64,000 bases of DNA from Candidatus Moraniibacteriota bacterium (GTDB taxonomy: Bacteria > Patescibacteriota > Minisyncoccia > Moranbacterales > UBA1568). Each line of letters opens with the position of its first letter. Within the stretch, counting starts at the first letter, position 1. The DNA is taken from positions 65,222-129,221 of the forward strand of contig CP064994.1 of the NCBI GenBank assembly GCA_016699975.1. Direction: 5' to 3'. A program made the position numbers and the translations under genes. This document shows positions 4,472-51,396 of the stretch, in pieces. The notes beneath the pieces were generated by a model. The model did not search any database and was not told where the DNA came from. It was given only the letters and a program-made list of their open reading frames with translations.

Positions 4472-4511
4472 GAGTGGTGCCCTTCCGTTTTCATTTGTTG
4501 TTCTCTCGACT

Positions 4512-5939: not shown

Positions 5940-5985
5940 GGGGCTTGAGAGTGCCTCTTATTCGAATTTAGCGGAAAGGTATTTT

Positions 5986-23706: not shown

Positions 23707-24859
23707 TCACTTTTGAATCGGCATCATAATGTAGGTAAAGCCGGCCCGAAGAGGCGTATTGTCGGCATTTTTGAGAGCAACCGGTGTGCCAGAGGTATTC
23801 GCGAGAAATACGACCGTGTCGCTCTCGATGAACGACACGCCATCGAGCACCGCTTTGGGAGAGAAGACGGTGCGAAGTTGACCAGCACCGGATCGGGAAA
23901 GAGCGCGCACCTCGGCGCGTTGCTCCCCAACACCACTTCCCACCGCCTCAACGAGAACGAAATCTTCGCCCGAATCGGATCCGAGTTCGATAGCAACTTC
24001 GCCAGAAGAAAAAACGCTTGCAATGCGGAGCGCCCGTTGAAATTCGTCCCGATTGAGCTCCGCAGAAAATGAGAATTCCAGAGGCATAATCTGCCGATAA
24101 TCCGGAAACTTCCCAAGAATAAGGCGGAGAGTACCTCAACGCCATCGAGTTCGAAAAAATCTGATTCTCTTCGAGCGTCATGCGAATCATTTTCTGTTGA
24201 ACACCAATCGCTCGCGATACTTCAAGGAGGGTAGTCGAAGGGAGAATGAGTGAGCCTCCCGCGGAAAACGCTTCAAGAACTTCTGCTTCGAGGGGCGCCG
24301 AAAACGGAAGAATTTCTTCACTCAAACGAAAGCTATCAGTTGCCGCCAGACGAACCCGCTCTTTTTCAAAGAGAAAGTTGACTCCGGTGAGCTCGAGCCG
24401 CGTTTCTTGTGTCGCGACACAAGGCAAGAGCCTCGAAAGAGCGCGCTTCAGCGCTTCCGCCGGAAGTTCGGTCGCAACACCTGCCTTCTTTTGTGGCATG
24501 ATGGGAAACTCGCTCGCGGGAAGCCCCTTTATTTTCACCCGATATCCCGCGCACGAGACCGAAAGCGCCTGATCCTTTTCTTCGAGCGTCACGACTTCCG
24601 TCTCCGGCAAATTTACGACGAACTGCGAGAGAATTTTTGCTGGCACCGTAAGACTTCCTTCCCGCTCCACCTTGGCACCGACGCGAGCTACAACACCGAT
24701 CTCCAAATTCGTCGCCGAAAGTTTGAGTCGACCAGATTCCGTCTCGAGGAGAAAATTGCCGAGAATCGGGAGAGAGCTCTGTCGCCCCGTTACGCGCTCC
24801 GCATATCCGATCGCGCGTTTCAAATTTTCTTGCGTACAAACGAGTTTCATAGGGATCAT
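23707..24859 (-). CDS. dnaN: DNA polymerase III beta sliding clamp (frame broken by 1-nt indel near 24120-24130)
   Basis: The first ~240 aa (SLPILGNFLLE, VNFLFEKERVRLAATDSFRL) match DnaN domains I-II. Domain III (GKFPDYRQIMP...GFTYIMMPIQK) continues in another frame. Removing one C/G in the ctccgcc run restores the frame. Confidence 0.85.
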
Positions 24860-25032: not shown

Positions 25033-26561
25033 TTACGTTCGGTAGAGTCGCTCCCTGAGACTCACAATGTCTTCTTTCAATCGACCGTCTTTCTCAATAT
25101 CCTTTCGGACGCGCTCGATCGCATGGAGTACGGTTGTGTGATCACGTCCACCGAAATACTGTCCGATCGCCGAAAGAGACACCGAGAGTTCCTGTCGCGC
25201 AATGTACATTGCCACCTGACGCGCAAAAGCGATATGCTTCTTTCGTCCCTTTTTTTGGAGTTCTTCTTCCGGCACATTATAGAATTCAGCGGAGGCCTTT
25301 GCGATACTTTCGAGGGTCACCGTTTGTTTGTTGACCGTGATAAGATTACCGAGAATCTTTTCGATATAGGGAACAGTCGGATGCACTTTCTGAAATTCAG
25401 CGGACGCGAGTACACGGTTGAGCGCACCTTCGAGCTCACGCGCATTGTTGGTAATGTTTTCTGCGATAAAACGAACGCATTCGTCATCGAGGACATTTCC
25501 TTTTTCCGTAAGCTTGAGGCGAAGAATCGCCATGCGCGTTTCAAGATTCGGGCGGCTCACATCCGCAATCATCCCACCTTCAAAACGACTTTTGAGACGA
25601 TCTTCCAAGGTCGGGATCGCTTTCGGGGTACGGTCGCTCGTAATCACCACCTGCTTGTTTGCAAGGTGAAGTGTATTAAAGACATGAAAAATTCTTGTTG
25701 CGTTTTCTCACGCCCGGAGAGAAACTGCACGTCGTCGATGAGGAGCACGTCAATTTCGCGGTATTCGTTCTTGAAGGTTTCCATCGACTGATTCTTCAGG
25801 CTGTTGATAAGTTCGTTGGTAAACTCTTCCGATGTGGTGTATCGAACTCTCTTTTCCGGTGACCGCTTCAGAACCTCGTTCCCGATCGCCTGAATAAGAT
25901 GCGTTTTTCCTACCCCAACCACGCCGTAAATGAAAAGAGGGTTGTAAAGCGTTCCCGGACTCTGTGAAACCGCGAAACACGCAGCGCGAGCGAGCTCATT
26001 GTTCTCTCCCACGATAAAATTTTCAAATGTGTAGCGTGGATTTAAGTTCGATCGACGCTTTCTGGAAGATGCGCCCCCTTCCTCAAGAGCCGAGGTTCCG
26101 GAAGGCGCGAACATATGCGGAAGCCGGGGCGACACGACCTGAGACGGCGAAGAGGAAGAAATTCGAACCGGGAGAATGCCATTCGCACTCGCAAGAGAAG
26201 GGGCGACACTCGTCGGAAGAGAGGGCGCGGTAGGAGAGGAGACTGGTGTTACTTCGGGAGTTCTCCTTCCAATATCCATGGCTTTCGGAGTGGCGATTCC
26301 CTCAAGATTCGGCTGATAGAAACAGGAGATTTCTCGAATCGAAGGATCCTGGCGTTCAAGCGCCTGGAGAATAATGTGGTTATACCGATTTTCGAGCCAC
26401 TCTTTTGTAAAGGGGTTTCCCACTGCAATCCGAGCCACACCATCTTCGAGCGCTACGAGACGAGTACGTAAAAACCACGTCTCAAAATTCGCCTTCGAAA
26501 CCGAAAGCTCAAGTTCCCCCAATACAACCTTCCAAAGCTCATCGAGCGACATACAATACAA
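25033..26561 (-). CDS. dnaA: chromosomal replication initiator DnaA (frame broken by 1-nt deletion in T/A homopolymer near 25686-25690)
   Basis: The N-terminal domain is followed by the AAA+ region (GVVGVGKTHL, IDDVQFL). The frame then shifts, and the alternate frame reads [22 protein letters not shown] followed by the DnaA C-terminal DNA-binding domain (HTTVLHAIERV). Confidence 0.85.
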
Positions 26562-26689: not shown

Positions 26690-26698
26690 TGTGGATAA
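26690..26698 (-). promoter_or_regulatory. consensus DnaA box (TTATCCACA, reverse orientation)
   Basis: The plus strand reads TGTGGATAA, an exact reverse complement of the 9-mer. A degenerate neighbour TGTGCACAA sits at 26701-26709. Confidence 0.5.
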
Positions 26699-35153: not shown

Positions 35154-36299
35154 TCACAAAGAGAGACTCACTCGGTAGAGCTTTCCGTCTCTTCTGTTTC
35201 TGAAAAAAAGTGATGTTTCTTCGGCATCGATCATGAGAGACTCCGCGTCGAAGCTCTGTGTAATATCTTTCGTATCGACAACACGAGATTTCTCACCCGT
35301 TTCTACATCCACTTTCCAAAAAGTATCCGCGGTCAAAATGGGTTTCTCGTAATAGTCGTTGGGAAGAATACTTCCTTGGGGGAGGGTCCCCGGAAGCGCA
35401 TAGTAAACAAATCGTCCATTTCGAGACCAGACTGCCTTTCCTACCAAAGAAGGAATGAAAAGATTCCGATAATTACTCCCATCCAAATCAATAAGGCCGA
35501 GCGTCAGCACTGTTCCTTCGGATTGCGTGACACCACTCACGAGAGTCTCCCCACCACGAGGAGAAAATAAGTAGTCGGTACCATACATGCCGGAAAACAC
35601 TTCTGTCGGTTCCGTCGCCAGGGCCGAAAACACGTGGAGACTGGTCTTCTCAAATGCGTTCGGCGCATTCCAAAAAGCGATACGCGCGCTCTGCGGCACA
35701 GCACTTATCGTCAAGCGGTCGAAGGGAGTCGTTCCGATTTTCTCCCAACCGGTTCCGTCTGGAGCAGCAATATTCACGGTGCGCTCGCCTGTTCCTAAGT
35801 CGGTATAATGGTAAATGATGCGGTCTCCAAGCGTTGTCCAGGCGGGAAATTCTATTCCCTCAGGAAGGGGGAGAAGCTCTTTCGATTCCCGAACAAGCAA
35901 GAACCATTCGGAAGGTTCCTTTTCCACAAGCGCCTTATCGCGAGCATTCGACCATACAATTCCACGTGGCGGAAAGGGAAACTCTATGAGAGTTTTTACT
36001 GTTTCTTCAAGAAGAAATCTTTGTTTCACCGCACGCTCATCTTTCGACACATACAAAACCGAACGACTATCGGCGTCGAGAACCGGCAGAGTCACTTCTT
36101 GTTCGGTGAGTGCGGTAATTTTTTCGATACTCTCTTTCTTTGTCGGTCCTTCATCTTTCCCAAATTCCACTCGAGTATTCGATCCTCCGGAAGACACCTT
36201 TCCTTCGAAAGGGTTGTTCTTGAAGAAAAAGTTGTAAATGAGAAAGAAAACAAGAAAAACAAAAAAAAGAGACGTAAGAACAATGAAGAACTTCTTCAT
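35154..36299 (-). CDS. membrane-anchored secreted protein, beta-propeller (TolB/WD40-like) repeats
   Basis: An N-terminal TM anchor is followed by repetitive beta-strand motifs (DGKLYRVSLS type). It is the first gene of the T4SS-like minus-strand cluster. Confidence 0.55.
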   Translation of the reverse strand: MKKFFIVLTSLFFVFLVFFLIYNFFFKNNPFEGKVSSGGSNTRVEFGKDEGPTKKESIEKITALTEQEVTLPVLDADSRSVLYVSKDERAVKQRFLLEETVKTLIEFPFPPRGIVWSNARDKALVEKEPSEWFLLVRESKELLPLPEGIEFPAWTTLGDRIIYHYTDLGTGERTVNIAAPDGTGWEKIGTTPFDRLTISAVPQSARIAFWNAPNAFEKTSLHVFSALATEPTEVFSGMYGTDYLFSPRGGETLVSGVTQSEGTVLTLGLIDLDGSNYRNLFIPSLVGKAVWSRNGRFVYYALPGTLPQGSILPNDYYEKPILTADTFWKVDVETGEKSRVVDTKDITQSFDAESLMIDAEETSLFFRNRRDGKLYRVSLSL

Positions 36300-36302
36300 A
36301 GA

Positions 36303-37622
36303 TCAACTATGACCATCGCAGCTACACCCAGAAACACTTATGTGTACGTGATTACCCTCGTCATTGACGAAAGGAACGCCACAAGCGCGAGCAGCCGACT
36401 TGATAGATTCCTTCGATGCTGCACTCCCCCTTGTCGATATATCAGCGGCACATGACTTCGGATTCTTTTTCGATCCACCATAATGGCAGGAATTCTTCGT
36501 ATGCGCACAGGCTGCATCACTAAAGTTATTCTGGCAACGACTGAATCCGGCACTATCTGAAATACTCGAGATTTGCATTTTTCCACTTCCAACTTTATCC
36601 GTCATACACTTTAGTGCATCAAGCAGTGGTTGCGATGCATCGCTACTACATTGATTTTGTATACCTGATTGCCATGTTACATCAAGAGCACAGCTTCCTG
36701 ACCCTGCTGGAGGAATCGACCCGATTGGCGAAGAAGATGCGCCTCCATCAACCGCCGCCACAGAAAGTCCACTCAACTTGAGCTTGGTAAGATCGGGATT
36801 GATGGTATCTAAGATAAGCCACGAGATGAGTGCAATAATAAGGCCAATAAGCGCACCATAGATGGTTTTCTTGGCAGTTCCCAGAAGATGTGTATTCCCG
36901 GCACTCGAGAGGTAGAGAAACCCTCCCACGATAAGCATGAAGAGCGCGGAAAGAGCAACCACCCACAAAGCGAAGAGGTAGAGATTTTTAAAATACGTAT
37001 CGAAATTTCCATTTGCATTTTCAAATCCTGGAAGGTTTTCGAGGGGAGTATATTGTAAAGAGGATGCTTTTCCAGAATCGGGAGATAAGTTATTTGTCGT
37101 TGACAATTTACAACAACTTTGAACTGCTTCTGAAGTAGAGCTCTTGCATTCTCCAATCTTTGTACCAGTCGTACATCCAGAGTTTACTGCCCCTGAATCA
37201 AGAGCGCAGATTCCTCCTGCCGCTTTACAAGAAGTATCATCATCGGGGACAGAGCCCGGTGCCATACAGCACATTAAACTTGACCCTCCAGAAATATTTG
37301 AGCTGCACTGTCCAAGAGCACTTTCGCCAAAGGAGCAGCCATTATTATTTTGAGTATACTGACGGCAGATACCACTTTCGTTTTGACCACACTTATCACC
37401 AACATTATAGACCTTCTGACAACAGCTTGAATTCACCGAATCATCACTGCAATTCCCTATTCGAGTTTTCCCATTCGAACACACTGCCTCACAAGAAGCC
37501 GTTTTATCTCCATAAGTTAAGCAGTCCGATCTTGTTTCAGGAGCTGCCCCTACCACAAAAGGACTAAGAAGAAAAACCCAAAGAAAGCTTCTGAAAAAAT
37601 AATGTGGAAAGAGAAATCTCAT
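36303..37622 (-). CDS. Cys-rich secreted/membrane protein with internal pilin-like (VirB2/TrbC-like) two-helix hairpin
   Basis: A signal peptide is followed by an extracellular region with more than 20 Cys. The central hydrophobic pair LYLFALWVVALSALFMLIVGGFLYL ... TIYGALIGLIIALISWLIL is separated by a short polar loop. A Cys-rich C-terminal region follows. Confidence 0.55.
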   Translation of the reverse strand: MRFLFPHYFFRSFLWVFLLSPFVVGAAPETRSDCLTYGDKTASCEAVCSNGKTRIGNCSDDSVNSSCCQKVYNVGDKCGQNESGICRQYTQNNNGCSFGESALGQCSSNISGGSSLMCCMAPGSVPDDDTSCKAAGGICALDSGAVNSGCTTGTKIGECKSSTSEAVQSCCKLSTTNNLSPDSGKASSLQYTPLENLPGFENANGNFDTYFKNLYLFALWVVALSALFMLIVGGFLYLSSAGNTHLLGTAKKTIYGALIGLIIALISWLILDTINPDLTKLKLSGLSVAAVDGGASSSPIGSIPPAGSGSCALDVTWQSGIQNQCSSDASQPLLDALKCMTDKVGSGKMQISSISDSAGFSRCQNNFSDAACAHTKNSCHYGGSKKNPKSCAADISTRGSAASKESIKSAARACGVPFVNDEGNHVHISVSGCSCDGHS

Positions 37623-40315
37623 ACTTGATATTTATTTTTCGAACCTTCAAATATCTCTCCCAATGAGAACGAAAATGCCACTCCCGTAATCAAGAGAATC
37701 ATCCCCAAAGAAAGAAAGAGGCGAACAGAGAAGAGAACAAATGGAGGTACCGAAGAAATGAGTGAGGCAAAGAATGTATTCGTCTTTTCTTTTCCAAGGT
37801 AATTATTACCATCCACAAGCCGAACTTGAATCTCTTTCGAAAAACGAGTGGTCTCTGAACTGAAAGGTGAGATTCTCCAGATATCAAAGAGCGCTTTCCT
37901 CAGTTCTCGCGGTTGATTATAGCTTCCTGAAAGTGTCACTGTATAAATATCCCCAGGAATACCGTTGAGGGCGAGCGAGAGTCCAGAATCGTTCCATTTA
38001 AACGGCTTTCCATTGATAGACCATATCATTTCATTTTGAGTATCTCCATTTTTTATACCATTCACGATAAAAGAGCCGAGTGTTTCTGGACGAAAAAGTG
38101 CCGAAAGTTTCGCTTCCCCGCCAGGAATTCCATCAAAGGAAGTTTTACTGAGGTCGGTCACTTCGGATCCGTCGAGATTCACGTATTTTCCGAGATATTT
38201 CGGCCACGCTATTTCGTCGTCTTCAGAAATAATATCGAAATCGGGCTCGACAATTTGAAATCGCCGAGAAACGGTGAATGATTTTCCAGTTTGCGCATTA
38301 CTCGCCGAAGCAGAAACAATATACACATCTCCTACTTTTCCGGAAACCGGGAAAAAATTGACTGGCCCTTGTTTTCCATCAACACACTCTCCCGAAACTT
38401 GACTCGTGCACACGAGAGCTTCTCCGTTTAAAGTCCAACTGAAATCCCGCATATCGCTGCCAGCATCATCAAGCGAAACGCCAACAATTTGTTGGTTTAG
38501 TACGGGACAAATCGTTTGCTGGAACATATTTTCGGCACAGAAAGAGGTTCCGTTTCGTCGAACGCTGACGAGTCCGGTGGAGGCATTCACTACGGCATCC
38601 ACATCGGAAACGTCAATCGACTTATTGGCCACTACCTTGACAACCAAAGAAGCAGTTCCACTCTGGCTCGCTTTTCCATTAAAGCTTTCGGTGGCATTTA
38701 CCGTAATACGAAGGTAAGCGATGTCATCCCGCAAATACTCTCCGAAACCAGGAATAATAGTGCCCGTCTTCGGATCTCGAAAATCGCTTTCGTTCAAGTT
38801 AAGATTGATCGCCAAATCGGTAAGGCCATTCCCTTGCGCCAACCCGATGTTTCGAGCGGTTTGGAGATCCCTGGTAATATCGACCCACACATTCTCTTCA
38901 TTGAATCGCGTATTGAAAGTTCCATCTTTGCTTGCCTGAACACGCCACACATAATTCGTAAATGAGGAGCCTCGGCGAGCATTCGACGATGACGCTCGTG
39001 CCGTGACAAGGTCACCTGTTTGAGCGAGAGACGATGCGGAAGCTCCGCTTTCCGCCCACGGGATAAGTTTTGCGGAGGGCTCTTCGGGAGTCGCAGAGAG
39101 TGAAACTTCGAGATTCTCTGCTTGTCCTCCTTCAGTTGGATCGACAAGATTTTTCTCAAGACAATCATTCAAACTGAAACCATTCGTTTTTCCCCGTACC
39201 GTTTTTATGGAAACATCGTATCCTTTCACCGTCACGGTTTTTGAGCCTTTCATCTCTTCCGGAATCTGGCAGTTATTTTTCGGCAGCGCCCACATGATCA
39301 TTTTACTGGAGTCGTCGTACTTGGTGGTGTACATCGAAGTACCCTCGACTATTACGCCCACCATATCTTCCGGCGCATACGACCATCGAAAAACATCTTG
39401 TCCAAGCCCTGCCAAGTTCGCTTCGTCTTTATTTCCATTCCGCGCGGTACTCGGATTTTCTGGATCCGTTCTCCAAAAACGCTCTTCTTCTATGGGAAAT
39501 TTCGAAGGACCGTCGTCATTATCACCTATAGGACCCGCTTCTCGCACTTCACCGTTATCGGTAATTCGGTACATCTGAGGAAACAGGTGTTCACAGTATG
39601 AAGTTTCCCCACTGTTAATCTCGTAATTGTGCCCGTCGACAAAGTCATGTACATAACAATAGTAATTTTTGTCTGATTTCGAATCACCGCCAAACGTGGC
39701 GCGATATCCGTCTTCGTCGCGATCGCCCCCCTTAGTTCCCGTTGGACTAATACGACTCGGCGCACTTGAGCGATACATGTTTCTTGCGCAGTTTTCCCGC
39801 TCTTCATCGGAAAGATTTCCATCGAGCGAGCAGGTAGCGTCAAAGTTTCCCGCAGCGATAAGTTGCATCGCTTCTATCTTCCAGTCTTCAACAGTAATTT
39901 TATCATCGTCATTCCTATCGCAGCGTTCGCGCTTTTCTCGGTTGGGTTCATTGTCGAGATCACATCCTTTCCGGCGAATAAACCACGTGTAATAAAGTGT
40001 TTCTTTCGAGCCATCGAAAAATTCCGGAAAAGCGCGTGCCTCAACCGACGTGCCTGGTTTTGGATCGGAAGGACTGAAATACAAAAGCACCTGCGGCGCC
40101 TGGCCCTTCTGAGAAGAAACATTGAAGTTTTCTCCTTGATTCTGAAGGCTTTCCTTATCGAGATGATATCGTTTCTCAAAAGCCTCAAACATGCTGGATG
40201 AGGAGCTACTCACGCTCGGCATGTTGGTCACAAAAACATTCGTAAGCTGCGCGGAAGCAGCCGAGGGAAGAACGAGAAAAAAAATGGTCAGCAATCGAAG
40301 AAAGAACAATCGCAT
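37619..40315 (-). CDS. very large secreted surface protein (898 aa) with C-terminal TM anchor
   Basis: Has a signal peptide (LVLPSAASAQ), a mostly beta-rich extracellular body and a C-terminal hydrophobic anchor. It overlaps the downstream gene by 4 nt. Confidence 0.6.
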   Translation of the reverse strand: MRLFFLRLLTIFFLVLPSAASAQLTNVFVTNMPSVSSSSSSMFEAFEKRYHLDKESLQNQGENFNVSSQKGQAPQVLLYFSPSDPKPGTSVEARAFPEFFDGSKETLYYTWFIRRKGCDLDNEPNREKRERCDRNDDDKITVEDWKIEAMQLIAAGNFDATCSLDGNLSDEERENCARNMYRSSAPSRISPTGTKGGDRDEDGYRATFGGDSKSDKNYYCYVHDFVDGHNYEINSGETSYCEHLFPQMYRITDNGEVREAGPIGDNDDGPSKFPIEEERFWRTDPENPSTARNGNKDEANLAGLGQDVFRWSYAPEDMVGVIVEGTSMYTTKYDDSSKMIMWALPKNNCQIPEEMKGSKTVTVKGYDVSIKTVRGKTNGFSLNDCLEKNLVDPTEGGQAENLEVSLSATPEEPSAKLIPWAESGASASSLAQTGDLVTARASSSNARRGSSFTNYVWRVQASKDGTFNTRFNEENVWVDITRDLQTARNIGLAQGNGLTDLAINLNLNESDFRDPKTGTIIPGFGEYLRDDIAYLRITVNATESFNGKASQSGTASLVVKVVANKSIDVSDVDAVVNASTGLVSVRRNGTSFCAENMFQQTICPVLNQQIVGVSLDDAGSDMRDFSWTLNGEALVCTSQVSGECVDGKQGPVNFFPVSGKVGDVYIVSASASNAQTGKSFTVSRRFQIVEPDFDIISEDDEIAWPKYLGKYVNLDGSEVTDLSKTSFDGIPGGEAKLSALFRPETLGSFIVNGIKNGDTQNEMIWSINGKPFKWNDSGLSLALNGIPGDIYTVTLSGSYNQPRELRKALFDIWRISPFSSETTRFSKEIQVRLVDGNNYLGKEKTNTFFASLISSVPPFVLFSVRLFLSLGMILLITGVAFSFSLGEIFEGSKNKYQV

Positions 40316-42214: not shown

Positions 42215-44033
42215 TTACCCGTTCATTTCATCGAATTCCCGCTTCGCTGCTTCGATTTCGGCGAGCTGTTCGGGGTTTGATGTGATAATTTGGTCTTCGC
42301 TGTAGGAAGCAACCACCTTGATCGCGACGTGTTTCGATCCGGCAAAAAATATTCCTTCTCCTACCGCACTTTCGAGCAACAGGAATTTTTCGTGATCCGT
42401 GAGATAAAAAGGTTTCCGAAACGACATCGATGGAAGCGGGTGATTGGCGAAGGAGCAGTTGAAGCGAGGAGTTGGTAACAATGGGTTTTCCGTAACGAGA
42501 ACTCATGAAGTCGCTGATGTCTTGTGTGATAGTCGTAAGTCCTGCAAAGTATTTTCGCGCACGTTTTGCGATACCGAAGAGGAAACTTGCCGCATCGTCA
42601 TTTTGCATCATGATCCACGCCTCGTCGACCACGATCAGTCTCCGGCGAAGCTCCGAACGCATTTCATTCCACACATAGTGAAGAATGAGGTACATCGCTA
42701 CCGGCCGCAATTCTTCTTCGAGGTCTCGAATGTTAAACACCACAAATTGATTATTCATGGTGATATTGCTCGCGTGGTTTAAGAATCCGGAAAATATTCC
42801 TTTCGTATATTTCTCGAGTCGAGCCGAAAGCGACTCGGTTCCTTCCATGTTACGGAGCACTTCATAGAGATCTCCTATGGTGGGGAAGCTCGAAGGGGTG
42901 AGCGTTGAAAGATCAGTTTTTCCCGTGATATCCCGAACGGCATATGTCTCACGAAGAGCCTGATCAAGAATCGAGTCTTCCTCGGGCGTCACGCTTCCGA
43001 GCATCAAATGGAGAAGACCAATCAAGGTAGCAATATTGCTCCGCAGAAGCCCTTCAAAATCCTCTTCTTCATCGCGCTTTTTGGGAAGATCAAACGGATT
43101 GATATGAAAGGGCGAATTGAGACTCATCTGAATAAATGACCCATCAACGGACTCCGCAAGATGCTTGTACTCATTCTCCGGATCAATCACGATCACATTG
43201 GTATCGAACATCATGGAGCGCAGGATTTCAAGTTTGACAAAGTAGCTTTTTCCTGCGCCTGACTTCGCAAAGATGACCATGTTCGCGTTTTCCAATTTAA
43301 ACCGGTCAAAGAGAATGAGACTGTTATTGTGTCGATTAATTCCATAGAGAATACCGTCATTCGAAGAGAGGTCAGCGGAAACAAAGGGAAAGGTAGTCGA
43401 AAGCGGCGCAGTATTGAGGTTGTTTGCCACATCGAGTTCGTCCATGCCAACAGGGCGCGTCGCAGTAAAACCCTGTTGCATCCGCATGACCGCAGGTTTG
43501 ATATAGACAAGTTGAGATTCGAGAAATGCCTCAACGGAACGACTCATGCGATTGAGCTCCTCGACAGAAGAAGCGTAGAGCGAAATGTAAACGCCAAAAC
43601 GAAAGAACTTTTCCGTTCCCTGCTGAAGTTTGTCGCGAAGTTCTTCAATATCGTGAAGCGCGGTTTCAAGAATGGGACTGCGTATCTTCCCCGCTTCCGC
43701 CTCGATTTGAATTGAAGACTCAACCCGAGTCGCCGATTTGAGGAGGTTTCGCAAAATGTCCCGCGTATCGACGGGGTGCACGAACATCGAAACATCCATC
43801 GGAAAATCAAGGTTAATAATCGGAGAAAACCAGTTCGTGTTCAAAAATCGCGGATAGGCGATAATAAAATGCGTGCGTACCAAAGTTTCTCCCGCCTGCA
43901 ACGAATTAGCACTAATTTTAATCGCCGACGGCGCGATAAGATCGCGAATGCGGGCCACTCCCTTTTGGTAGAGCGCCTCACTTTGCAAAATTTCGTTTTG
44001 TTCTCCGTTTGGATTGAGAAAAGGAACGCGCAT
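42215..44033 (-). CDS. virB4: VirB4/TrbE/CagE-family T4SS ATPase (frame broken by 1-nt insertion in A/T run near 42405-42412)
   Basis: Walker A (FAKSGAGKSYF) and Walker B (RLIVVDEAW) are present. The C-terminal 88 aa (YLTDHEKFLLLESAVGEGIFFAGSKHVAIKVVAS) read in another frame, and removing one T restores ...VSETFYLTDHEK. Confidence 0.85.
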
Positions 44034-44261: not shown

Positions 44262-44960
44262 TTACCGCTCCACCTCAACATCGATCGCTTCAATATTTTT
44301 CGTAAGACGCGTAGTGAAAAGCGAAGGATTGTAAGAGTTATACAAAAGCTCGATAATTTCTTCCGTATTGAGGGGCGCTACTTTGAGACCCGTTTGGGAG
44401 AGTCCGAAACTCACATGATCGACACGCTGCCACAACTGATTTTTGTAGGTCTCAAAAAATTCACGTCGTTCCGAAACAGCACCCGCCGGATTAAACAGCG
44501 TAGTAAGTCCTCGGAATAGCCCTTTCTCTTTGTCTTCAACCGGAGAAAACGGCACAACGACATAAAAGAGCTTTGACATAATATTTGATACTTCCGAAAG
44601 ACTTTTGATAAAAGTTTGGTACTCCGAGATCTGCATCCGTAAAAGATCATTTCGCTGCTGATTCTCTTTGTCTTTCAGAAGTTCGATGTAGGGACGGATA
44701 TCAAATCGGCGCGAGGAAATGACCATCTGTATAGGAAAATCGAGAGAATTGAGAAAATTTTGGTACTGAAAAATAATAGCGTCTTGTTCCTCCGCAGATT
44801 TGAGATCAAAGTTGAGCGAAGAAACAAGGAGAATGGACCGCAGTGAACCGTTTTTGAGGACAATCACGCCATCACGTATTTCATTCACGTCGACATATCG
44901 CTGCGTGCTCGACGAAGCGTCCTCGGAAACAGGTTTTCGTGAGGGAGCGAGGGATTCCAT
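44262..44960 (-). CDS. VirB4 N-terminal-domain-like protein (possible detached or frameshifted N-terminus of VirB4)
   Basis: DGVIVLKNGSLRSILLVSSLNFDLKSAEEQDAIIFQYQNFLNSLDFPIQMV matches the N-terminal region of Gram-positive-type VirB4 (PrgJ/TrsE/ConE). The 228-nt gap to the VirB4 ORF is open in a third frame. Confidence 0.5.
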   Translation of the reverse strand: MESLAPSRKPVSEDASSSTQRYVDVNEIRDGVIVLKNGSLRSILLVSSLNFDLKSAEEQDAIIFQYQNFLNSLDFPIQMVISSRRFDIRPYIELLKDKENQQRNDLLRMQISEYQTFIKSLSEVSNIMSKLFYVVVPFSPVEDKEKGLFRGLTTLFNPAGAVSERREFFETYKNQLWQRVDHVSFGLSQTGLKVAPLNTEEIIELLYNSYNPSLFTTRLTKNIEAIDVEVER

Positions 44961-44986: not shown

Positions 44987-45409
44987 TTATTTGCGATCGA
45001 CCAATCGCGCGAGATCACGGATATCGCGTACCGAGAGCGGCTGAGGCGATTCTTGGGTCACTTTTTTCTCCACCGTTTTCGGCGCCTCCTTCGTCGTCAT
45101 ACCAGGTCGATCCCATGTATAGACTTTCGGTCGAAAGAGATACATCGACGCGTGAATCGTAAACGAAAGAAGGGATTGATTATATGGCCGATAAAAGGCA
45201 AAGAGAGAAAAGAGCAGGATCACCGGGACAGACAGCACGAAAAAAGTCGCCGTATCGAAAAAACTCCACAAAATAAAGAGAACCGCTCCCATGCCGACGA
45301 GCCATGCGATCTGTTTCGCTGTGAGGGGACCAGCTACCTTATCCTCGACATCGATAAATTGGGGGACATTGAAGAGCATACGCTTTCTTGGAAACTCAAA
45401 AAAAGACAC
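44987..45409 (-). CDS. PrgI/VirB3-like small membrane protein
   Basis: FNVPQFIDVEDKVAGPLTAKQIAWLVGMGAV plus two TM helices fits the PrgI family pattern, and the gene lies upstream of VirB4. Confidence 0.55.
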   Translation of the reverse strand: MSFFEFPRKRMLFNVPQFIDVEDKVAGPLTAKQIAWLVGMGAVLFILWSFFDTATFFVLSVPVILLFSLFAFYRPYNQSLLSFTIHASMYLFRPKVYTWDRPGMTTKEAPKTVEKKVTQESPQPLSVRDIRDLARLVDRK

Positions 45410-46956: not shown

Positions 46957-49233
46957 CTAAATGTTTCGTACACGATGATCGTTGTTCAGTCTTTTCAATT
47001 GATCAATATTTTTACTTCCCGAGGCATTACCATTACTATTAATATGATCTTTAATAATTTTAGCATTCACCAAACCATCATCTCCTGTTTCTGCCATCTT
47101 GGAAATAATATCCACATATTTCCCGCGAACGTTTTCTGTTATGAGATTAAGATTACTATTGATAACAGAGGATTTGAGACGCTTCAAAGAATCTCCATCG
47201 CCTCGCTGGAACAGGACCTTCTTCGCTTCTTCTTCTGAATCTATAGACTTATGAAATTCTCCCGTTTGTGCGACGTGGGCCGATTGTATATTACGAAGAA
47301 CATCAAAGTCTTTCAAATTCTTCCAGTCGGTCGCTGTTATTTCACTTCCATTCGAATCAACTCCTTTTATTTTACTATCCTTGATATCTTGGCTAATTTT
47401 TGTAATAGCTCCATCAAGCGCGGTTTTAATTTGAGTTGCATAGGCTCCTCCCTTCGACCTCAACTCTTCAAAGTCTTTATTGGTAATCGTCTTTGCTTTA
47501 AAAGCGTACTCCAAAAGCTGAGGAGTCAAGCTCTTATCCGATATTTTCTTCCAGTCAATTTTCCCGGTCGCCACATAGCTCTCCAGCTGCTTCGTATTCA
47601 ACACCCCATTCTTATCGGTAAATGCGGCTACGGGATTAAAGTTGCGCATCTTCGATTCAAAAACTTTTGAAACCTGAGAATTTTCTCCAAAGAGATTCCT
47701 CACCGTGTTCAAATCATTTTGTGTTGCAAGATTACGATCAGCAAGCTCTATAAGCGCCGCCGCTTTCTCGTGAGTATTTCCCTTCTGCACGATCTCATTG
47801 AGTTTATCAGGATCCAAATCAACCATGCCTTTCTTCTTAGCTGCATCGTCAACCAATTTTTTATTTTCTTGGTCAAGTCTCGTTTGAGCAGCATCTCCAC
47901 CACCCGCTCGTACCGCCCACCTGCGTTCCCGGCTAGCAAGTGCTTCTTTTCCAAATCCAAGAGCATTTGCTCTATCTTGAATCGCTTGTTTCACTCCTCC
48001 CGTTATTCCTAATTGCCGCAAAGGGTAAGTAATCGGTGCGTGCCAGCCTCTTCTTACCCAATTTCCCATTTTTCTTCCCGCATTCGAGCCCCACTTTATA
48101 CCAAGCCCTGATATATCATTACTGGATTTCTCGGCCCAGGTAATAGCAATCCAAAAAAGCACAATGGGAATGGCAAAAAATGCAACCGCCGAGACCATAG
48201 AATCATTCACCGAATTCCCCGAAGAAACAAACGCACCTCCAGTTGCATAGTTAGGATAAATCAATGCACCCGCTTCGCGCATAACAATGATCGCAATGAG
48301 GGTCAACATCACGGCAATAGGACCATAAAATGCCCATTTAAAAAGTTTTGACCACCAGTCTCGCGCATAACTTTGAAGTGCTGGGGTAATCATCCCCACA
48401 AAACCAATTGGAGCAAACATTACAAGAATCGCAAGCGAAATCATACGAACCACCATCAAGACTGCGAGCGTCAAAAACGATGCGCCGAACAAAAACATAC
48501 AAATGGTAGCAGCAAGAAGATGGGTGGTACTAAAAGAAGAAATACTTGTCGTACCCTCAATCCCTGGAATAAGAATTTTTTGTATATTTGAAGAGCCAAG
48601 CAAACCTTCGGCAAATTTCCCACTCGTAAAAGCACTCGCTGTATTTGCCTCAGGACTTCCACCAAACACGTTTTGTGCAAAGAAATACATGGGAACATTG
48701 GCAATATCTATTACAAAGCGCGCAATAGGGAAGCTAAAATTCACCAAGAGCGCCATTATAATAAGAAGCGGAATGGTTTTCTTGTATTCATACTTATCAA
48801 GTTGAAATATGGTCGCAAAGGCCGAAAACAAAAGAACAAGGATAAAAAAGATATTGCAAAAATCTCGCACCACTATCCATACCTCATACAGCGCACCGGC
48901 ATTCATGAGTTTGGTGAACGTATTCACATCAATCGCCCACACAAACATATTCGCCGCGAGCATGGTAATCCAAGAAAAAAACACAAAAAAGGGGTAAATT
49001 AAAACATTCAAAGAAGTGGAGAACCAGCTTGACATCGAATCTCCTCCTTGCGTTTGTGCAAATAAAACAGTAGGCAAAAACAAAAAAATCCAAAGAAAGA
49101 TGAAAAATCTTCCCAAGGAGGGGGAATTCAAAAAAATGCGCGAGAAAAATTTCTGTATCGTTTTTATTTGAGAGAGAAGAATCACAAGAAGAGAGGTAAG
49201 AAGCACACTTCTTTTTCGAACAAAGTATATCAC
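46957..49233 (-). CDS. VirB6/TrbL-like polytopic membrane protein with long hydrophilic C-terminal extension
   Basis: A signal/TM segment and six or more TM helices occupy the first ~400 aa, then ~350 aa are hydrophilic and Lys/Asn-rich. AT-rich composition. Confidence 0.6.
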   Translation of the reverse strand: MIYFVRKRSVLLTSLLVILLSQIKTIQKFFSRIFLNSPSLGRFFIFLWIFLFLPTVLFAQTQGGDSMSSWFSTSLNVLIYPFFVFFSWITMLAANMFVWAIDVNTFTKLMNAGALYEVWIVVRDFCNIFFILVLLFSAFATIFQLDKYEYKKTIPLLIIMALLVNFSFPIARFVIDIANVPMYFFAQNVFGGSPEANTASAFTSGKFAEGLLGSSNIQKILIPGIEGTTSISSFSTTHLLAATICMFLFGASFLTLAVLMVVRMISLAILVMFAPIGFVGMITPALQSYARDWWSKLFKWAFYGPIAVMLTLIAIIVMREAGALIYPNYATGGAFVSSGNSVNDSMVSAVAFFAIPIVLFWIAITWAEKSSNDISGLGIKWGSNAGRKMGNWVRRGWHAPITYPLRQLGITGGVKQAIQDRANALGFGKEALASRERRWAVRAGGGDAAQTRLDQENKKLVDDAAKKKGMVDLDPDKLNEIVQKGNTHEKAAALIELADRNLATQNDLNTVRNLFGENSQVSKVFESKMRNFNPVAAFTDKNGVLNTKQLESYVATGKIDWKKISDKSLTPQLLEYAFKAKTITNKDFEELRSKGGAYATQIKTALDGAITKISQDIKDSKIKGVDSNGSEITATDWKNLKDFDVLRNIQSAHVAQTGEFHKSIDSEEEAKKVLFQRGDGDSLKRLKSSVINSNLNLITENVRGKYVDIISKMAETGDDGLVNAKIIKDHINSNGNASGSKNIDQLKRLNNDHRVRNI

Positions 49234-50208
49234 AAAAAAGAGGAGTCAAGAAATTTCCTGAGAAGCACACCCTTTTCTCCTTGGTAATGATATTCTCTTC
49301 TGTATTCTTTAAATAAAATTATCGTTATTAGTGATGTGTGTTTGTTGAAAAGAAGCTTATTTGCTTCTAGATGCAAAAAGATAAGGAAAAGAGAGTGGTG
49401 GAAGAAGTACTAAAGTTTGGTGGAAAAAAAGAAATTTTCTTTTTTAGGAAAGTTATTTACGAGAACATCGGGAGAATTCACAGGGTTTTTCTTTGTTTTT
49501 TCACCGAAAAAGATGAGATAACAACAGGATATCAACAATTTTTCAGATATTTTAAAAAAAGAATTTCTTTTTCTAGAATTATTAATAACAAAAATTTTCT
49601 TGGTGGCTCCTTGTTTTCTGAAAAGGAGGACGTTTTTAGAGGATTTTTACTTTACAGAAGTATCAAAGAAAACTTCATTCTTTCTCTTTGAAGCAGAGTT
49701 TTTGAGTGATATTGCTACAAACGAAACATTTTTTTGGAACCGAACTCCAGAATTCCTGTCATTTCCCATAAGGTTCTTCATTTGATTTGACGGAGAATAC
49801 ACAAAAAAGAGTTTTTCTGAACCTGTTTTTTATGAGAGCTTCCAAAAATTCTCTTGAAATCTTGTCCTTTGACCCATTTGAGCTCATCTGAGAGAAGGAG
49901 TTTTTGTATTGAGTGGTGGAAGTCTTGAAAAGGCAATGCTCTTGATCGTTACTTAAGCAAATTTCTGTAAAATTTTTCAGAGTTCTCAGCATGATTTATC
50001 GTAATTCTTTCTCATTCTCTCTCCATTCACATTTCTTTCGGTAAAGATCACACTCTCATTTCGTTTGATTGAGCGGTGTATTCTTGGTTTTTTTCACTTC
50101 TTCAAATCACATGTTCCCAATTTTTTCAGTGCTGCTTTTAATTTTAGAAAAATACTCCCGAAGGGAGTATTGTAAAGATTTAAAAAATGGTGTTTTGAAG
50201 CCTCTTCC

Positions 50209-51396
50209 TTAGTAAATGTAGCCTTTAATACTTCGACTGGTTGTGGGAAGGGTGCGGCGGTTTGTTTTTCCCCACCCAACATAATTCATTTCGCTGACGG
50301 TAATTTCATCGCCGGACACTTTTTCCACAAGGGCTACGTGTCCGTAATATCGATTTTCGGTGGTGACGACAATGGAGCCGACGCGAGGTGCTTTCCCAGT
50401 TTTGTATCCGAGCGCTTTAGCATTGTAAAGCCATGTCCCAGCATTTCCTCCCCACGGAACATAGCGCTTTTGGGAGACATACCATGTACAGTAGCCAAAA
50501 GGAAAGCGGTGTCCTGAACCGGCTTTCCCTTCCGGAGTGCGCCAACCAGAAATATCAGTTGCTGATCCTCCTGAAGACGTTGCATATTCGCGTCGCTCAA
50601 AAACAGGAGCTGGTTTCGGCGCTTCCTCTTTGTAGCCATCGGGAATAATGAGTTCCTCGCCCGGCTCAATGCGGCCGTCGGCGGGGAGGTTGTTAAAGGC
50701 GATAATTCGATCCTTGTCGCCATGGTACTTCTTGGCGATATCTTCGAGTGTGTCTTTTTCGGAGACAATATGCTTGAGTCCCGCGACCGGAAGAATAAAT
50801 ATCTGATCGCCGGGGCGTATCTCGTCCACATTTTGGAGATCATTCGCCCACAGAATAGTATTAACAGTAATACGATGTTTTTCGGCTACACTGCTTAGGG
50901 TGTCGCCATCTTGAATGGTGTAGATACTCACCCCACCTTCTTCCTCAGGATCTTTTTGAATAAGAGGAGAGAGATCGGCGGAGGCAATGGCGGGCAATCT
51001 TTTGGTTTCCTCGCTTTCTTCAAGGAGTGCCGAGGGATCGACGGGAGTGGATGCTTGAGCGAGGGGAAGTCCAGAGAGACTTTCTCGAATGGAAGGCGCC
51101 GATGGCTTTGGCGTGCCAGTATTTTTGGAATAAAAATAGCCGGAGAGCACGCCCCCAGGCTTTTCAGAAGAAGAGATAATAGTTCCTGTCACCAAAACGG
51201 CGCTTCCGAGCACAACCGAGAGGGCAGAATATTGGCGAAATAAATGAAGAATGCGAACCGTACGGTGTTGTTTGAAAGAAACAACACATTTTCGCTGAAA
51301 ACGGTGAAATTCAGTGTTCCCTCTTTTCAGAAACCCTCGAATTCGCTCTGAGAGACGGGTTTCTGTGGCGCGACGTATACGAGGAGAAATACGCAA
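50209..51396 (-). CDS. peptidoglycan hydrolase: 2x LysM + C-terminal CHAP domain
   Basis: Two LysM repeats (DTLSSVAEKHRITVNTILWAN; DTLEDIAKKYHGDKDRIIAFNN) are followed by a CHAP domain (GYCTWYVSQK...GNAGTW...GSIVV...GHVALVE). The true start is probably internal, at the signal anchor. Confidence 0.75.
   Translation of the reverse strand: MRISPRIRRATETRLSERIRGFLKRGNTEFHRFQRKCVVSFKQHRTVRILHLFRQYSALSVVLGSAVLVTGTIISSSEKPGGVLSGYFYSKNTGTPKPSAPSIRESLSGLPLAQASTPVDPSALLEESEETKRLPAIASADLSPLIQKDPEEEGGVSIYTIQDGDTLSSVAEKHRITVNTILWANDLQNVDEIRPGDQIFILPVAGLKHIVSEKDTLEDIAKKYHGDKDRIIAFNNLPADGRIEPGEELIIPDGYKEEAPKPAPVFERREYATSSGGSATDISGWRTPEGKAGSGHRFPFGYCTWYVSQKRYVPWGGNAGTWLYNAKALGYKTGKAPRVGSIVVTTENRYYGHVALVEKVSGDEITVSEMNYVGWGKTNRRTLPTTSRSIKGYIY

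Follow-up and report, generated by a model that had tools for sequence, protein, structure and literature searches.

The gene under study occupies positions 36303..37622 (-) of the window, i.e. of the whole 64-kb stretch of DNA that was analysed. It starts with ATG and encodes a protein of 439 amino acid residues, whose computed domain architecture consists of an N-terminal signal peptide, three beta-defensin-like repeats, a pilin-type hairpin, a Gly/Ser linker and a LAS/M15A-like domain. All genes and protein features given below are encoded on the (-) strand. Judged by gene content and the names given to homologues, the source is an ultra-small bacterium of the Patescibacteria/CPR type, close to "Candidatus Moraniibacteriota".

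The operon and its orthologous loci

The 5' start of the gene shares four bases (37619..37622) with the stop of its upstream neighbour, and the downstream gene starts three bases past its own stop. Because of this 4-base overlap and 3-base gap, the three genes are regarded as a tightly packed operon. The upstream gene (37619..40315) encodes a conserved secreted protein of 898 aa with a C-terminal hydrophobic anchor and is always located directly upstream of the pilin gene. The downstream gene (35154..36299) codes for a conserved, N-terminally anchored protein of 381 aa, which always follows the pilin gene, either directly or, in the loci L004 and L005, after one gene of ~230 aa, and which is kept even where VirB4 is not adjacent. 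Neither of these two flanking proteins obtained a Pfam or PDB assignment.

The initial annotation had placed the gene in a T4SS cluster, which is borne out by a VirB4-like ATPase and a PrgI/VirB3-like protein in the window and by additional TrbL_3 and TraC-like proteins in orthologous loci. The VirB4-like ATPase (42215..44033; PF19044, E=3e-27; PF12846) has a frameshift close to its 3' terminus in the sequence analysed. The cluster further contains a 232-aa protein (44262..44960) with TraC-like orthologues (PF26593; 84% identity), the PrgI/VirB3-like protein (44987..45409, 140 aa; PF12666, E=2.4e-8) and a polytopic, VirB6-like membrane protein of 758 aa (46957..49233), an orthologue of which affiliates with TrbL_3 (PF19590). 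A cell-wall hydrolase with CHAP and LysM domains (50209..51396; PF05257, E=1.4e-18; PF01476, E=5e-21) is located upstream of the cluster and represents a VirB1-like candidate. No relaxase and no coupling protein were seen in the window. The pilin operon lies near dnaA. The dnaA gene is split, and since its two parts are in different frames, an alternative genetic code was dismissed as the explanation.

The gene order in the orthologous loci L001, L002 and L008 is VirB6-like, X, PrgI, TraC-like, VirB4, two genes of ~230 aa, a ~900-aa gene, the pilin gene and a ~385-aa gene. The shorter contigs L004 and L005 comprise only the part from VirB4 to the 385-aa gene, including the extra ~230-aa gene after the pilin gene. 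Of the six loci examined, five have the pilin gene closely packed against the VirB4 operon and in the same orientation. In L003, the pilin gene and the gene 3' of it adjoin Wzy_C and glycosyltransferase genes and VirB4 is not adjacent; envelope-polysaccharide genes border the pilin gene in every locus. In another CPR genome (L009), a pilin+LAS protein and three small PF18895 pilins are encoded together in one array.

Domain architecture of the 439-residue protein

Cysteine is strongly enriched in the protein, with a share of 6.4% versus 0.66% in the 37 other ORFs of the window (binomial P ~8e-19). Of the 28 cysteines, 18 fall within aa 34-171 and ten within aa 311-435, while aa 172-310 are free of them. 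Both external parts hence contain an even number and the hydrophobic hairpin contains none, which concurs with the initial description of a 439-aa protein with more than 25 cysteines outside a helix pair. Of the CxxC/CC-type patterns named in that description, CC is present in all three repeats, whereas a literal CxxC does not occur; instead, the C..C..C..C..CC repeat occurs three times, accompanied by a single C-x3-C and a terminal C-x-C. The proposed decoration of a pilin-like core with disulfide-rich domains stands as well, with the amendment that it involves two unlike domain types, defensin-like repeats on the N-terminal side and a LAS/M15A-like domain on the C-terminal side. Across orthologues, the hairpin is conserved best (median identity 79%), followed by the enzyme-like domain (51%) and the repeats (28%).

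The predicted Sec-type signal peptide (aa 1-27, 37542..37622) has a basic n-region, a hydrophobic stretch at aa 8-27 in the hydropathy profile, a cleavage-like site between VGA and A, and an AlphaFold2 (AF2) helix at residues 5-18. The hairpin (aa 207-279, 36786..37004) appears in the hydropathy profile as two hydrophobic segments (aa 214-240 and 253-275), with K251 and K252 in the loop between them, and in the AF2 model as two long antiparallel helices (207-239 and 244-274, pLDDT 84-92; loop SAGN). The two-helix hairpin with a short loop that had been recognised initially is thus confirmed by hydropathy and model alike. It is preceded by a low-confidence linker rich in Ser, Thr and Asn (aa 174-190, 37053..37103; pLDDT <50 for 176-189) and, immediately before helix 1, by a conserved Y-T-P-L-E-N-L-P-G-F motif (aa 191-200, 37023..37052), which in short-form relatives such as P0037 stands directly after the signal peptide. 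A flexible Gly/Ser/Pro linker (aa 280-305, 36708..36785; pLDDT <50 for 281-297) follows. Predicted signal peptide, two helices and basic loop correspond to the topology of pilins, and with this topology both Cys-rich parts would be located outside the cell.

In a comparison with PF18895, the hairpin aligned to profile positions 7-70 of 71 with E=4.6e-5 and 23.8 bits, just below the Pfam cut-off of 26.6 bits; the hairpins of orthologues scored between 24.1 and 30.3 bits, i.e. around this cut-off, and some of them pass it. The relative P0108, which shares the C-terminal domain and whose hairpin matches the hairpin HMM of the query family at E=7e-12, passes both PF18895 (37.9 bits) and the TrbC/VirB2 model PF04956 (28.3 bits, cut-off 27.9 bits). 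The initial assignment of a VirB2/TrbC-like hairpin is therefore supported, and the sequence comparisons argue for a putative VirB2/TrbC-class T4SS pilin core. Further pilin-like ORFs were not detected in the 64-kb window with the family HMM and a two-TM screen, and a scan of a collection of genome contigs retrieved a single, weak pilin relative. Pilins of the VirB2/TrbC type are small mature proteins (~7-12 kDa) that consist of the hairpin only and polymerise with phospholipid into an extracellular pilus. The query, with 439 aa and ~300 aa of extra folded domains, is far larger than is usual in this class.

The N-terminal part contains three repeats at aa 30-70 (37413..37535; C34, C44, C48, C58, C67, C68), aa 74-121 (37260..37403; C78, C86, C96, C106, C118, C119) and aa 128-173 (37104..37241; C132, C139, C150, C159, C170, C171). 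Their six-Cys order and terminal CC are the same in 3/3, with spacings of 9-3-9-8(-0), 7-9-9-11(-0) and 6-10-8-10(-0) compared to a canonical ~6-4-9-6, and each has a Gly-x-Cys4 (IGNC, LGQC and IGEC), as do 73 of 84 homologue repeats. In the PDB, the profile of the repeat family matched defensins in 12 of 14 cases, the best being BNBD-12 (E=0.0038), together with human, avian and mouse beta-defensins; hhalign of the repeats against beta-defensins resulted in a probability of 87.9% and E=3e-6. Pfam Defensin_beta matched six of 36 repeats, and one orthologue repeat exceeded the cut-off (PF00711, 25.5 vs 21 bits). Searched singly against the Pfam defensin models, the three repeats of the window gave no meaningful match (best Defensin_1, E=5, repeat 2). 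Neither reversed sequences nor sequences with fixed cysteines and the rest shuffled yielded a defensin match, and composition as the source of the matches was rejected on the basis of these two clean controls. The AF2 models (pLDDT ~80-90) display a short helix and three strands with the cysteines on matching elements (H31-36, E43-45, E52-58 and E65-70 in repeat 1; E84-88, E101-106 and E116-120 in repeat 2; H129-134, E137-140, E154-160 and E167-172 in repeat 3). The nearest small PDB folds in Foldseek were alpha-defensins (6dmm: TMt 0.74, rmsd 1.3 A, 30 residues), at an E-value of 3.5, which is not significant. The repeat family is tiny, with seven cluster representatives among 1.84 billion proteins, and the number of repeats varies from zero to three among orthologues, some of which have none.

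With beta-defensins (PF00711, PF13841; trans-defensin superfamily), the repeats share the six-Cys order C..C..C..C..CC with its terminal CC, a Gly two residues before Cys4, a Gly before Cys2 and, in the models, the short helix and three-stranded sheet with cysteines on corresponding elements. The disulfide connectivity of beta-defensins is C1-C5, C2-C4, C3-C6. In contrast to these free, secreted and cationic peptides, the repeats are bacterial, arranged in tandem inside a membrane protein and neutral to acidic (mean net charge -0.2, range -6 to +3), and their Cys2-Cys3 and Cys4-Cys5 loops are longer. The N-terminal part comprises three repeats that resemble beta-defensins, be it by homology or by convergence.

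The C-terminal domain (aa 306-439, 36306..36707) contains ten cysteines and five residues, H374, H380, D394, H425 and H427, that are invariant in alignments of 30 and 25 diverse sequences. Its profile retrieved Hedgehog N-domains from the PDB in 14 of 16 matches (best E=0.024), and a wider profile (A7) did so in 15 of 16 with worse E-values; these matches are marginal (E between 0.02 and 1). In the top alignments, H374, H380, D394, E422 and H425-x-H427 fall on the His/His/Asp/Glu/His-x-His of the Hedgehog stretch 'GHHSEESLHYEGRAVD...ESKAHIH'. Zinc in Shh is bound by H141, D148 and H183, with E177 as the catalytic Glu (mouse numbering). H380 and D394 align with H141 and D148 but are 13 residues apart, as a result of a 7-residue insertion, versus six in the canonical H-x(6)-D; H425-V-H427 aligns with the H-x-H formed by H183 and the His two residues before, and E422 with the Glu of Shh 'YYESKAHIH', a position taken by His in one subclade. 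An hhalign comparison with ShhN gave E=1.3e-4. The AF2 model (pLDDT 91.2, pTM 0.86) adopts the alpha/beta sandwich fold of the LAS/M15A family, and a fold search in BFVD returned Murein endopeptidase K as best match (E=1.2e-3, probability 1.00), followed by a phage peptidase (target-normalised TM-score, TMt, of 0.63), several entries for Peptidase M15A and one that is Shh-like. Foldseek against the PDB had no significant match for either the C-terminal or the repeat model, and Pfam, with its M15 and HH_signal models included, gave no match at E<=10 for the C-terminal domain, nor for a single one of 30 homologues. Single-sequence searches of the N- and C-terminal parts against Pfam and PDB gave nothing; the family profiles alone were informative.

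The LAS/M15A enzymes (Streptomyces zinc DD-peptidase, MepK, phage M15A endolysins) and the Hedgehog N-domain, grouped as the Hh/DD-peptidase family (Roelink 2018, PMC6027127), have in common with the domain the conserved His, Asp, His and Glu and the succession of a helix, a strand, a His-bearing loop, a strand with Asp, a helix and two strands with E-x-x-H-x-H. The domain differs from them by its longer His-Asp spacing, its ten cysteines, the lack of a Pfam M15 or Hedgehog match and its confinement to CPR-type metagenomic proteins, mostly pilin-fused. According to sequence and model, the C-terminal part thus resembles an enzyme-like zinc domain of the LAS/M15A (Hedgehog/DD-peptidase) type. 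About 100 retrieved protein clusters at 90% identity contain this domain, with names including Moranii-, Falkow-, Komeili-, Azam- and Parcubacteria; most are fused to the pilin hairpin, and P0087, P0096 and P0100 are stand-alone copies without it. The module is swapped in a smaller group of orthologues, which carry at the same locus of other genomes either NlpC/P60 (PF00877, 26.4 vs 23-bit cut-off) or an uncharacterised module. On visual inspection, the latter ('TGGTE.GH.SHG.GKP.VD...HFHL', alignment A2) resembles a LAS domain; it had neither a PDB match nor an hhalign link to the query domain, and hence it is not claimed as a peptidase.

Possible roles of the protein

The best reading of these features is a surface-displayed pilin of a Patescibacteria T4SS, predicted to cut peptidoglycan and equipped with hypervariable binding modules. 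We give about an even chance to a VirB2-like pilin of the monoderm-type T4SS of Patescibacteria (CPR) that was turned into a carrier for surface modules, namely the repeats and a wall-cutting domain. Domain architecture, conserved residues, synteny and the swapping of modules are established by the computations, and from there we infer its export, zinc binding, catalysis, polymerisation and cutting target. The protein would be exported via Sec, the signal peptide cleaved and the hairpin inserted with its basic loop in the cytoplasm and both ends outside. At the N-terminal end, three disulfide-locked, beta-defensin-like modules, with hypervariable loops on a fixed scaffold (six Cys, Gly-x-Cys), may bind the protein to, or space it against, an envelope surface. 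The C-terminal end, on its Gly/Ser tether, would be a zinc peptidase of the LAS/M15A type with His/Asp/His ligands and a catalytic Glu, which may cut peptide stems or cross-links of peptidoglycan. The VirB4/VirB3/VirB6 machine presumably treats the hairpin as a VirB2 pilin, by polymerising it or by retaining it at the channel, and the tethered peptidase could then open the wall locally for the T4SS, that of the own cell and possibly that of the host. In this way, the pilin fusion might supply in cis a VirB1-type function that most pilin-bearing T4SS loci of Patescibacteria appear to lack. Several of the results above weigh against this reading: the PF18895 score of the query below the cut-off, the lack of Pfam and PDB fold matches for the C-terminal domain, its marginal Hedgehog E-values and longer His-Asp spacing, the repeats of the window with neither a Pfam defensin match of their own nor a cationic charge, and L003, where VirB4 is not adjacent. 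Two further aspects do so as well. To our knowledge, none of the known T4SS pilins carries ~300 aa of globular cargo, so that polymerisation may be sterically impossible; and with the CHAP/LysM hydrolase beside the cluster, a second hydrolase is not strictly needed.

The initial annotation had considered a pilus-tip or adhesin subunit, i.e. a non-enzymatic protein that sits in small numbers on the tip of a pilus made of another pilin, with Cys-rich domains that just bind. The hypervariability of the repeats fits a binding role, and hypervariable loops on a fixed scaffold together with a varying copy number, here zero to three among orthologues, are typical of host-recognition modules; moreover, the array with three small PF18895 pilins in L009 fits a specialised minor subunit, and Hedgehog itself is a ligand with this fold. 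Nonetheless, no other pilin-like gene was found in the 64-kb window or the orthologous operons, which speaks against the protein being only a minor tip subunit in this case. A domain that does nothing but bind would not be expected to conserve all metal ligands and the catalytic Glu, and the C-terminal position is alternatively taken by an NlpC/P60 peptidase. We regard this explanation as unlikely. An improbable alternative is a housekeeping wall peptidase, in which the hairpin would be a two-pass anchor and the enzyme would remodel the own wall during growth or division independently of the T4SS. The Wzy_C/glycosyltransferase surroundings of L003, where no VirB4 is adjacent, the envelope-polysaccharide genes at every locus and the three stand-alone copies of the domain are in line with such a role, although the hairpin, which belongs to the T4SS_pilin/TrbC class, exceeds all other parts in conservation (79%), as a mere anchor need not do, and the shared orientation and tight packing with the VirB4 operon in 5/6 loci also speak against it.

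Defensin-like modules and peptidoglycan peptidases are, on the other hand, classic antibacterial weapons, and Patescibacteria frequently live as epibiotic parasites that depend on their T4SS to grow on the host (PMC10633639; PMC12857230). An offensive effector that lyses hosts or competitors, with the hairpin as an element for recognition or translocation by the T4SS, is nevertheless the least probable of the readings: the repeats are neutral to acidic, an immunity-like small gene is not evident adjacent to the gene, and signal peptide and stable hairpin predict retention in the membrane of the producer. Finally, the similarities to defensins and LAS enzymes might be convergent or spurious and the external parts disulfide-rich domains that are specific to the lineage and unrelated to them in fold and function. 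The marginal E-values in the PDB, the lack of significant PDB Foldseek matches for both models, the absence of Pfam matches for the window's own repeats and the tiny size of the repeat family speak for this explanation. The matches are specific, however (12/14 for defensins, 14/16 and 15/16 for Hedgehog), both negative controls were clean, the aligned positions are the functional ones and an independent fold search recovered M15A peptidases with probability 1.00; we regard this explanation as improbable.

If the reading as a pilin carrier is correct, the protein would be the first VirB2-type pilin known with folded cargo domains, and the fusion may show how the secretion machines of Patescibacteria get through cell walls. 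Since the C-terminal domain is mostly fused to the pilin hairpin and replaced by NlpC/P60 in some orthologues, the hydrolase may be built into the pilin. The most far-reaching version, genuine modules of the beta-defensin (trans-defensin) fold in bacteria combined with a tethered M15A peptidase into an armed T4SS pilus, each subunit of which bears an enzyme and a variable head, is a tentative and rather doubtful proposition; such a pilus would allow an epibiotic cell to drive a conduit through its own and the host wall without a separate VirB1. A bacterial domain that is beta-defensin-like in sequence and predicted fold is also relevant to the question of where trans-defensins come from, a group regarded at present as confined to animals, the bacterial defensins reported in the literature found being cis-defensins only (PMC11561630).

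Comparison with known systems

T4SS of Patescibacteria are unusual among monoderm systems in having VirB2-like pilins. The genes of such pilins have virB4 as a neighbour and dnaA in their vicinity (Quinonero-Coronel et al. 2025, PMC12102498), and most of the genomes that contain them lack VirB1 according to the same survey. In one system tested, the T4SS is essential for epibiotic growth, and the pilin array of Southlakia epibionticum ML1 is essential (Wang et al. 2023, PMC10633639). The query shares with the Patescibacteria pilins of PF18895 the order of signal peptide, two-helix hydrophobic hairpin and short basic loop as well as the location in a CPR genome beside virB4, prgI and a virB6-like gene and close to dnaA. 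Unlike these pilins, which are small and often arranged in tandem arrays, it is encoded by a single 439-aa gene and has ~155 aa of defensin-like repeats before and a peptidase-like domain of 134 aa after the hairpin. Pilin fusions to such domains are not described in the literature found, and PMC12102498, PMC10633639 and PMC12857230 make no mention of them.

The cell-wall hydrolases of T4SS share with the query a membrane-held, wall-facing domain of the hydrolase type that is encoded in the T4SS locus, and the same proposed role in wall opening. Known representatives (VirB1, PrgK of pCF10, TcpG and the CD419/TrsG class) are of the lytic transglycosylase, CHAP or lysozyme type and are attached by ordinary TM anchors. 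In contrast, the enzyme-like domain of the query is of the LAS/M15A type, replaced by NlpC/P60 in some orthologues, and is anchored by a pilin hairpin.

Genomic context of the pilin-like gene

The gene at 36303..37622 on the (-) strand encodes a protein of 439 aa, as given in the initial annotation. Its ATG overlaps the stop codon of the upstream gene at 37619..37622 and the downstream gene starts 3 bases past its own stop; this 4-base overlap and 3-base gap place it in a tightly packed operon. The 5' neighbour (37619..40315, (-)) encodes an 898-aa secreted protein and the 3' neighbour (35154..36299, (-)) a 381-aa anchored protein, both without assignment in Pfam and PDB searches. Both neighbours recur beside the pilin gene across the T4SS loci that were examined. 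In two orthologous loci (L004 and L005) one extra gene of ~230 aa lies between the pilin gene and the 381-aa homologue, and in another (L003) the 381-aa gene is still beside the pilin gene although VirB4 is not adjacent.

The same strand carries genes for a VirB4-like ATPase (PF19044, E=3e-27, and PF12846), a PrgI/VirB3-like protein (PF12666, E=2.4e-8), a polytopic protein of 758 aa whose orthologues carry PF19590 (TrbL_3, VirB6-like), a 232-aa protein whose orthologues carry PF26593 (TraC-like), a 480-aa protein encoded between the 758-aa and PrgI/VirB3-like genes and, between the VirB4-like and 898-aa genes, two membrane proteins. The proposed location within a T4SS cluster is borne out by these annotations. 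The orthology is corroborated by tblastn, at 91% identity for VirB4, 84% for the TraC-like protein, 66% for the 898-aa protein, 52% for the 381-aa protein and 45% for the pilin-like protein, whose homologues bear the name "pilin [Candidatus Moraniibacteriota]". The window represents chromosomal DNA from an organism of CPR/Patescibacteria type, with dnaA, dnaN, yidC, R3H/Jag-like, class A PBP, Wzy_C and glycosyltransferase genes, and the locus matches the published Patescibacteria T4SS, described as MPF-FATA-like, near dnaA, without relaxase and with VirB2-like pilins (PMC12102498; PMC12857230; PMC10633639). Neither a family HMM nor a screen for two TM segments revealed a further pilin-like ORF in the 64-kb window. 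Just upstream of the cluster, a CHAP + LysM cell-wall hydrolase (50209..51396, (-)) is a VirB1-like candidate, coexisting with the pilin-borne peptidase-like domain.

A frameshift, either due to an assembly error or marking a pseudogene, divides the dnaA gene (25033..26561, (-)) between two ORFs that overlap in different frames: 25644..26561 (-), with DnaA_N and most of the ATPase, and 25033..25650 (-), with the ATPase end and DnaA_C. A perfect DnaA box, TTATCCACA, is located at 26690, just upstream. The VirB4-like gene (42215..44033, (-)) has a frameshift close to its 3' end: ORF 42228..44033 runs out of frame over its final ~60 aa, which are junk, the true C-terminus being encoded by ORF 42215..42481, and the alignment with the L002 orthologue stops at residue 542. 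The dnaN gene (23948..24859, (-)) encodes just 303 aa and matches the N-terminal and central beta-clamp domains alone, so a further frameshift may have truncated it. Taken with each other, these defects suggest indel errors in the assembly. An AT-rich gap of ~1 kb without a long ORF (49234..50208; GC 0.376 for 48–50 kb) coincides with the cumulative GC skew minimum of the window; DnaA boxes near it have one mismatch at best. Besides a 7TM_transglut membrane protein and a Mur-ligase-like protein, the operon 3590..8183 (+) encodes two ATP-grasp enzymes, of which one has a fused Zn_protease-like domain; it may represent a peptide or polymer ligase system.

The hairpin and the distribution of cysteines

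Hydropathy analysis gave three hydrophobic stretches. The first, aa 8–27, resembles a signal peptide; aa 214–240 and 253–275 correspond to the two helices noticed initially, and the polar loop that links them contains two lysines. PF18895 (T4SS_pilin) aligned to aa 209–273 over profile positions 7–70 of 71 (E=4.6e-5), its 23.8 bits being just under the cut-off of 26.6 bits; orthologues scored 24.1–30.3 bits. P0108, which is more distantly related but shares the C-terminal domain, passes this cut-off (37.9 bits) and also that of PF04956 (TrbC/VirB2) over the same residues (28.3 bits vs 27.9), and the hairpin HMM of the family matches it at 7e-12. These matches support the VirB2/TrbC-like assignment. 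The topology likewise agrees: AlphaFold2, with a 53-sequence alignment, modelled long antiparallel helices (207–239 and 244–274; pLDDT 84–92) joined by a four-residue turn, with K251/K252 near the turn. No other part of the protein is as conserved as the hairpin (median identity 79% across 28 long homologues).

More than 25 cysteines had been claimed and 28 were counted: aa 34–171 contain 18 and aa 311–435 the other 10, and the stretch 172–310 has none. They make up 6.4% of the protein vs 0.66% of 37 other window ORFs (binomial P ~8e-19). Regarding the reported CxxC/CC-type patterns, CC ends each of three C..C..C..C..CC repeats, whereas a literal CxxC is absent from the 439 aa; one C-x3-C and one C-x-C also occur. 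With the signal peptide cleaved and the basic loop cytoplasmic, both protein ends would lie outside the cell, which agrees with all 28 cysteines lying outside, in even numbers per side.

Affiliation of the two cysteine-rich regions

Each of the three N-terminal repeats (aa 30–173) has six cysteines, a CC end and a glycine two residues ahead of Cys4; among 84 distinct repeats of homologues, G-x-C4 occurs in 73. In a search of a 36-repeat profile against the PDB, 12 of 14 matches were defensins, with bovine BNBD-12 (E=0.0038), a human beta-defensin (0.0066) and hBD-3 (0.018) as the best, followed by avian BD-3, hBD-2, mouse BD-8, hBD-104 and three alpha-defensins. All six cysteines and both glycines were aligned in the three printed alignments (BNBD-12, 6mjv and hBD-3). 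A reversed-repeat profile had no PDB match at E<=10, and a profile with fixed cysteines and the other residues shuffled gave no defensin, only two RNase matches at E>2.6; the signal is thus not due to composition or cysteine spacing alone. Hhalign against four beta-defensins gave 87.9% probability (E=3.2e-6). Pfam Defensin_beta matched 6 of the 36 repeats, one orthologue repeat reaching 25.5 bits over a 21-bit cut-off; the window's own three repeats had no meaningful defensin-model match, only a trace of Defensin_1 (E=5, repeat 2). In the AlphaFold2 model (pLDDT ~80–90) Cys1 is in a short helix, Cys2 on strand 1 and Cys3 in the next loop, strand 2 ends at Cys4 and the CC pair is on strand 3, the order seen in beta-defensins. 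The best small-domain Foldseek matches were alpha-defensins (for 6dmm, a TM-score normalised to the target, TMt, of 0.74, with 30 residues at rmsd 1.3 A), at non-significant scores. With a mean net charge of -0.2, the repeats are not cationic; they are hypervariable (28% median identity, mostly Cys and Gly) and rare (seven cluster representatives in 1.84 billion proteins). One of the seven, P0112 (L007 162..620, on a 645-bp contig), is a 152-aa metagenomic protein with a hydrophobic N-terminal segment and two near-identical repeats of the pattern C-x6-C-x6-C-x9-C-x7-CC, the sole stand-alone case found. By profile and model similarity, we regard aa 30–173 as beta-defensin-like; in the literature searched, cis-defensins are the only kind recorded from bacteria (PMC11561630).

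For the C-terminal domain (aa 306–439), single-sequence searches and the Pfam M15 and Hedgehog models gave no match. In 30 aligned homologous domains C363, C372, H374, C379, H380, G382, D394, H425 and H427 are invariant. Their profile retrieved Hedgehog N-terminal domains as 14 of 16 PDB matches (best E=0.024), and a second, more diverse profile as 15 of 16, with weaker E-values (0.19–1.1). The top printed alignments placed H374, H380, D394, E422 and H425-x-H427 on the Hedgehog His, His, Asp, Glu and His-x-His (stretch 'GHHSEESLHYEGRAVD...ESKAHIH'). Hhalign against human ShhN gave 54% probability (E=1.3e-4). The AlphaFold2 model (pLDDT 91.2, pTM 0.86) comprises a helix, a strand, the His loop, the Asp-bearing strand, a helix and two strands with E-x-x-H-x-H, presumably the order of the Hedgehog/DD-peptidase fold. 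Foldseek found no match in the PDB; in BFVD, the top matches comprised Murein endopeptidase K from phage phiM12 (E=1.2e-3 at probability 1.00), a "Peptidase" of phage origin (E=3.6e-3, TMt 0.63, with 112 columns at rmsd 3.5 A), several proteins annotated "Peptidase M15A C-terminal" and one Shh-like entry. Unlike the Hedgehog/M15 family, the domain contains ten cysteines and a His-Asp spacing of 13 residues instead of 6. From profiles and model we class it as a divergent LAS/M15A-type zinc peptidase domain, with putative activity. The initial observation holds, and its interpretation does so in part: the pilin core and T4SS context stand, and the Cys-rich parts are an enzyme-like domain and defensin-like repeats, which it had not foreseen.

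Module exchange and possible function

The family of this protein is modular. Contigs that share the locus, the VirB4-to-Wzy_C stretch, differ in the 3' part of the gene: L001, L002 and L008 have the LAS-like domain (the L008 orthologue having 281 aa and no Cys repeats), L004 has an NlpC/P60 peptidase (PF00877, 26.4 bits vs 23) and L005 a third, uncharacterised module. Its replacement by NlpC/P60, a bona fide cell-wall peptidase, in the same position independently supports a peptidoglycan-directed function for the LAS-like domain. A further 47 CPR proteins possess this domain, among them some named as Falkow-, Komeili-, Azam- and Parcubacteria; most are ~280 aa long (hairpin and domain) and a few are stand-alone. 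The third module (alignment A2: P0014, P0026, P0038, P0048 and others; L005 5125..6510) has the motif 'VTGGTE.GH.SHG.GKP.VD ... HFHL.F', LAS-like by eye; comparisons by PDB, Pfam and hhalign linked it to nothing that was tested. In Parcubacteria LiPW_15 (GCA_007375645.1; L009 9544..12765) a 275-aa pilin+LAS fusion is encoded in a pilin array together with three small PF18895 pilins and two small genes of unknown kind, so that some lineages may use the fused form as a specialised subunit.

Our preferred reading, to which we give about an even chance, is that the protein is the organism's T4SS pilin used as a carrier, with the LAS domain cutting the wall and the repeats binding or spacing. The hairpin would be handled by the VirB4/VirB3/VirB6 machine, and the tethered domain would cut peptidoglycan peptides locally so that the structure crosses the wall, supplying the VirB1 function in cis; VirB1 is missing from most pilin-bearing Patescibacteria loci (PMC12102498). 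The variable defensin-like modules may bind or space the protein against a surface, possibly the host envelope. It could form a polymer (a bottle-brush pilus), cap a filament or be retained at the channel. Residues 176–189 and 281–297 have pLDDT <50 in the AlphaFold2 model, and such flexible linkers would allow cargo to splay outward from a filament, but no VirB2 pilin is known to bear cargo of this kind.

A non-enzymatic adhesin or tip subunit, the role first suggested, appears unlikely. A housekeeping wall peptidase with the hairpin as mere anchor we find distinctly improbable, and it is slightly more improbable that the defensin and LAS similarities are spurious. An offensive effector seems the least probable reading. 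The literature searched contains no description of the fusion to a peptidoglycan-peptidase-like domain, of its exchange for NlpC/P60 or of the beta-defensin-like repeats, and the pilin core and its T4SS context are those already known for Patescibacteria.
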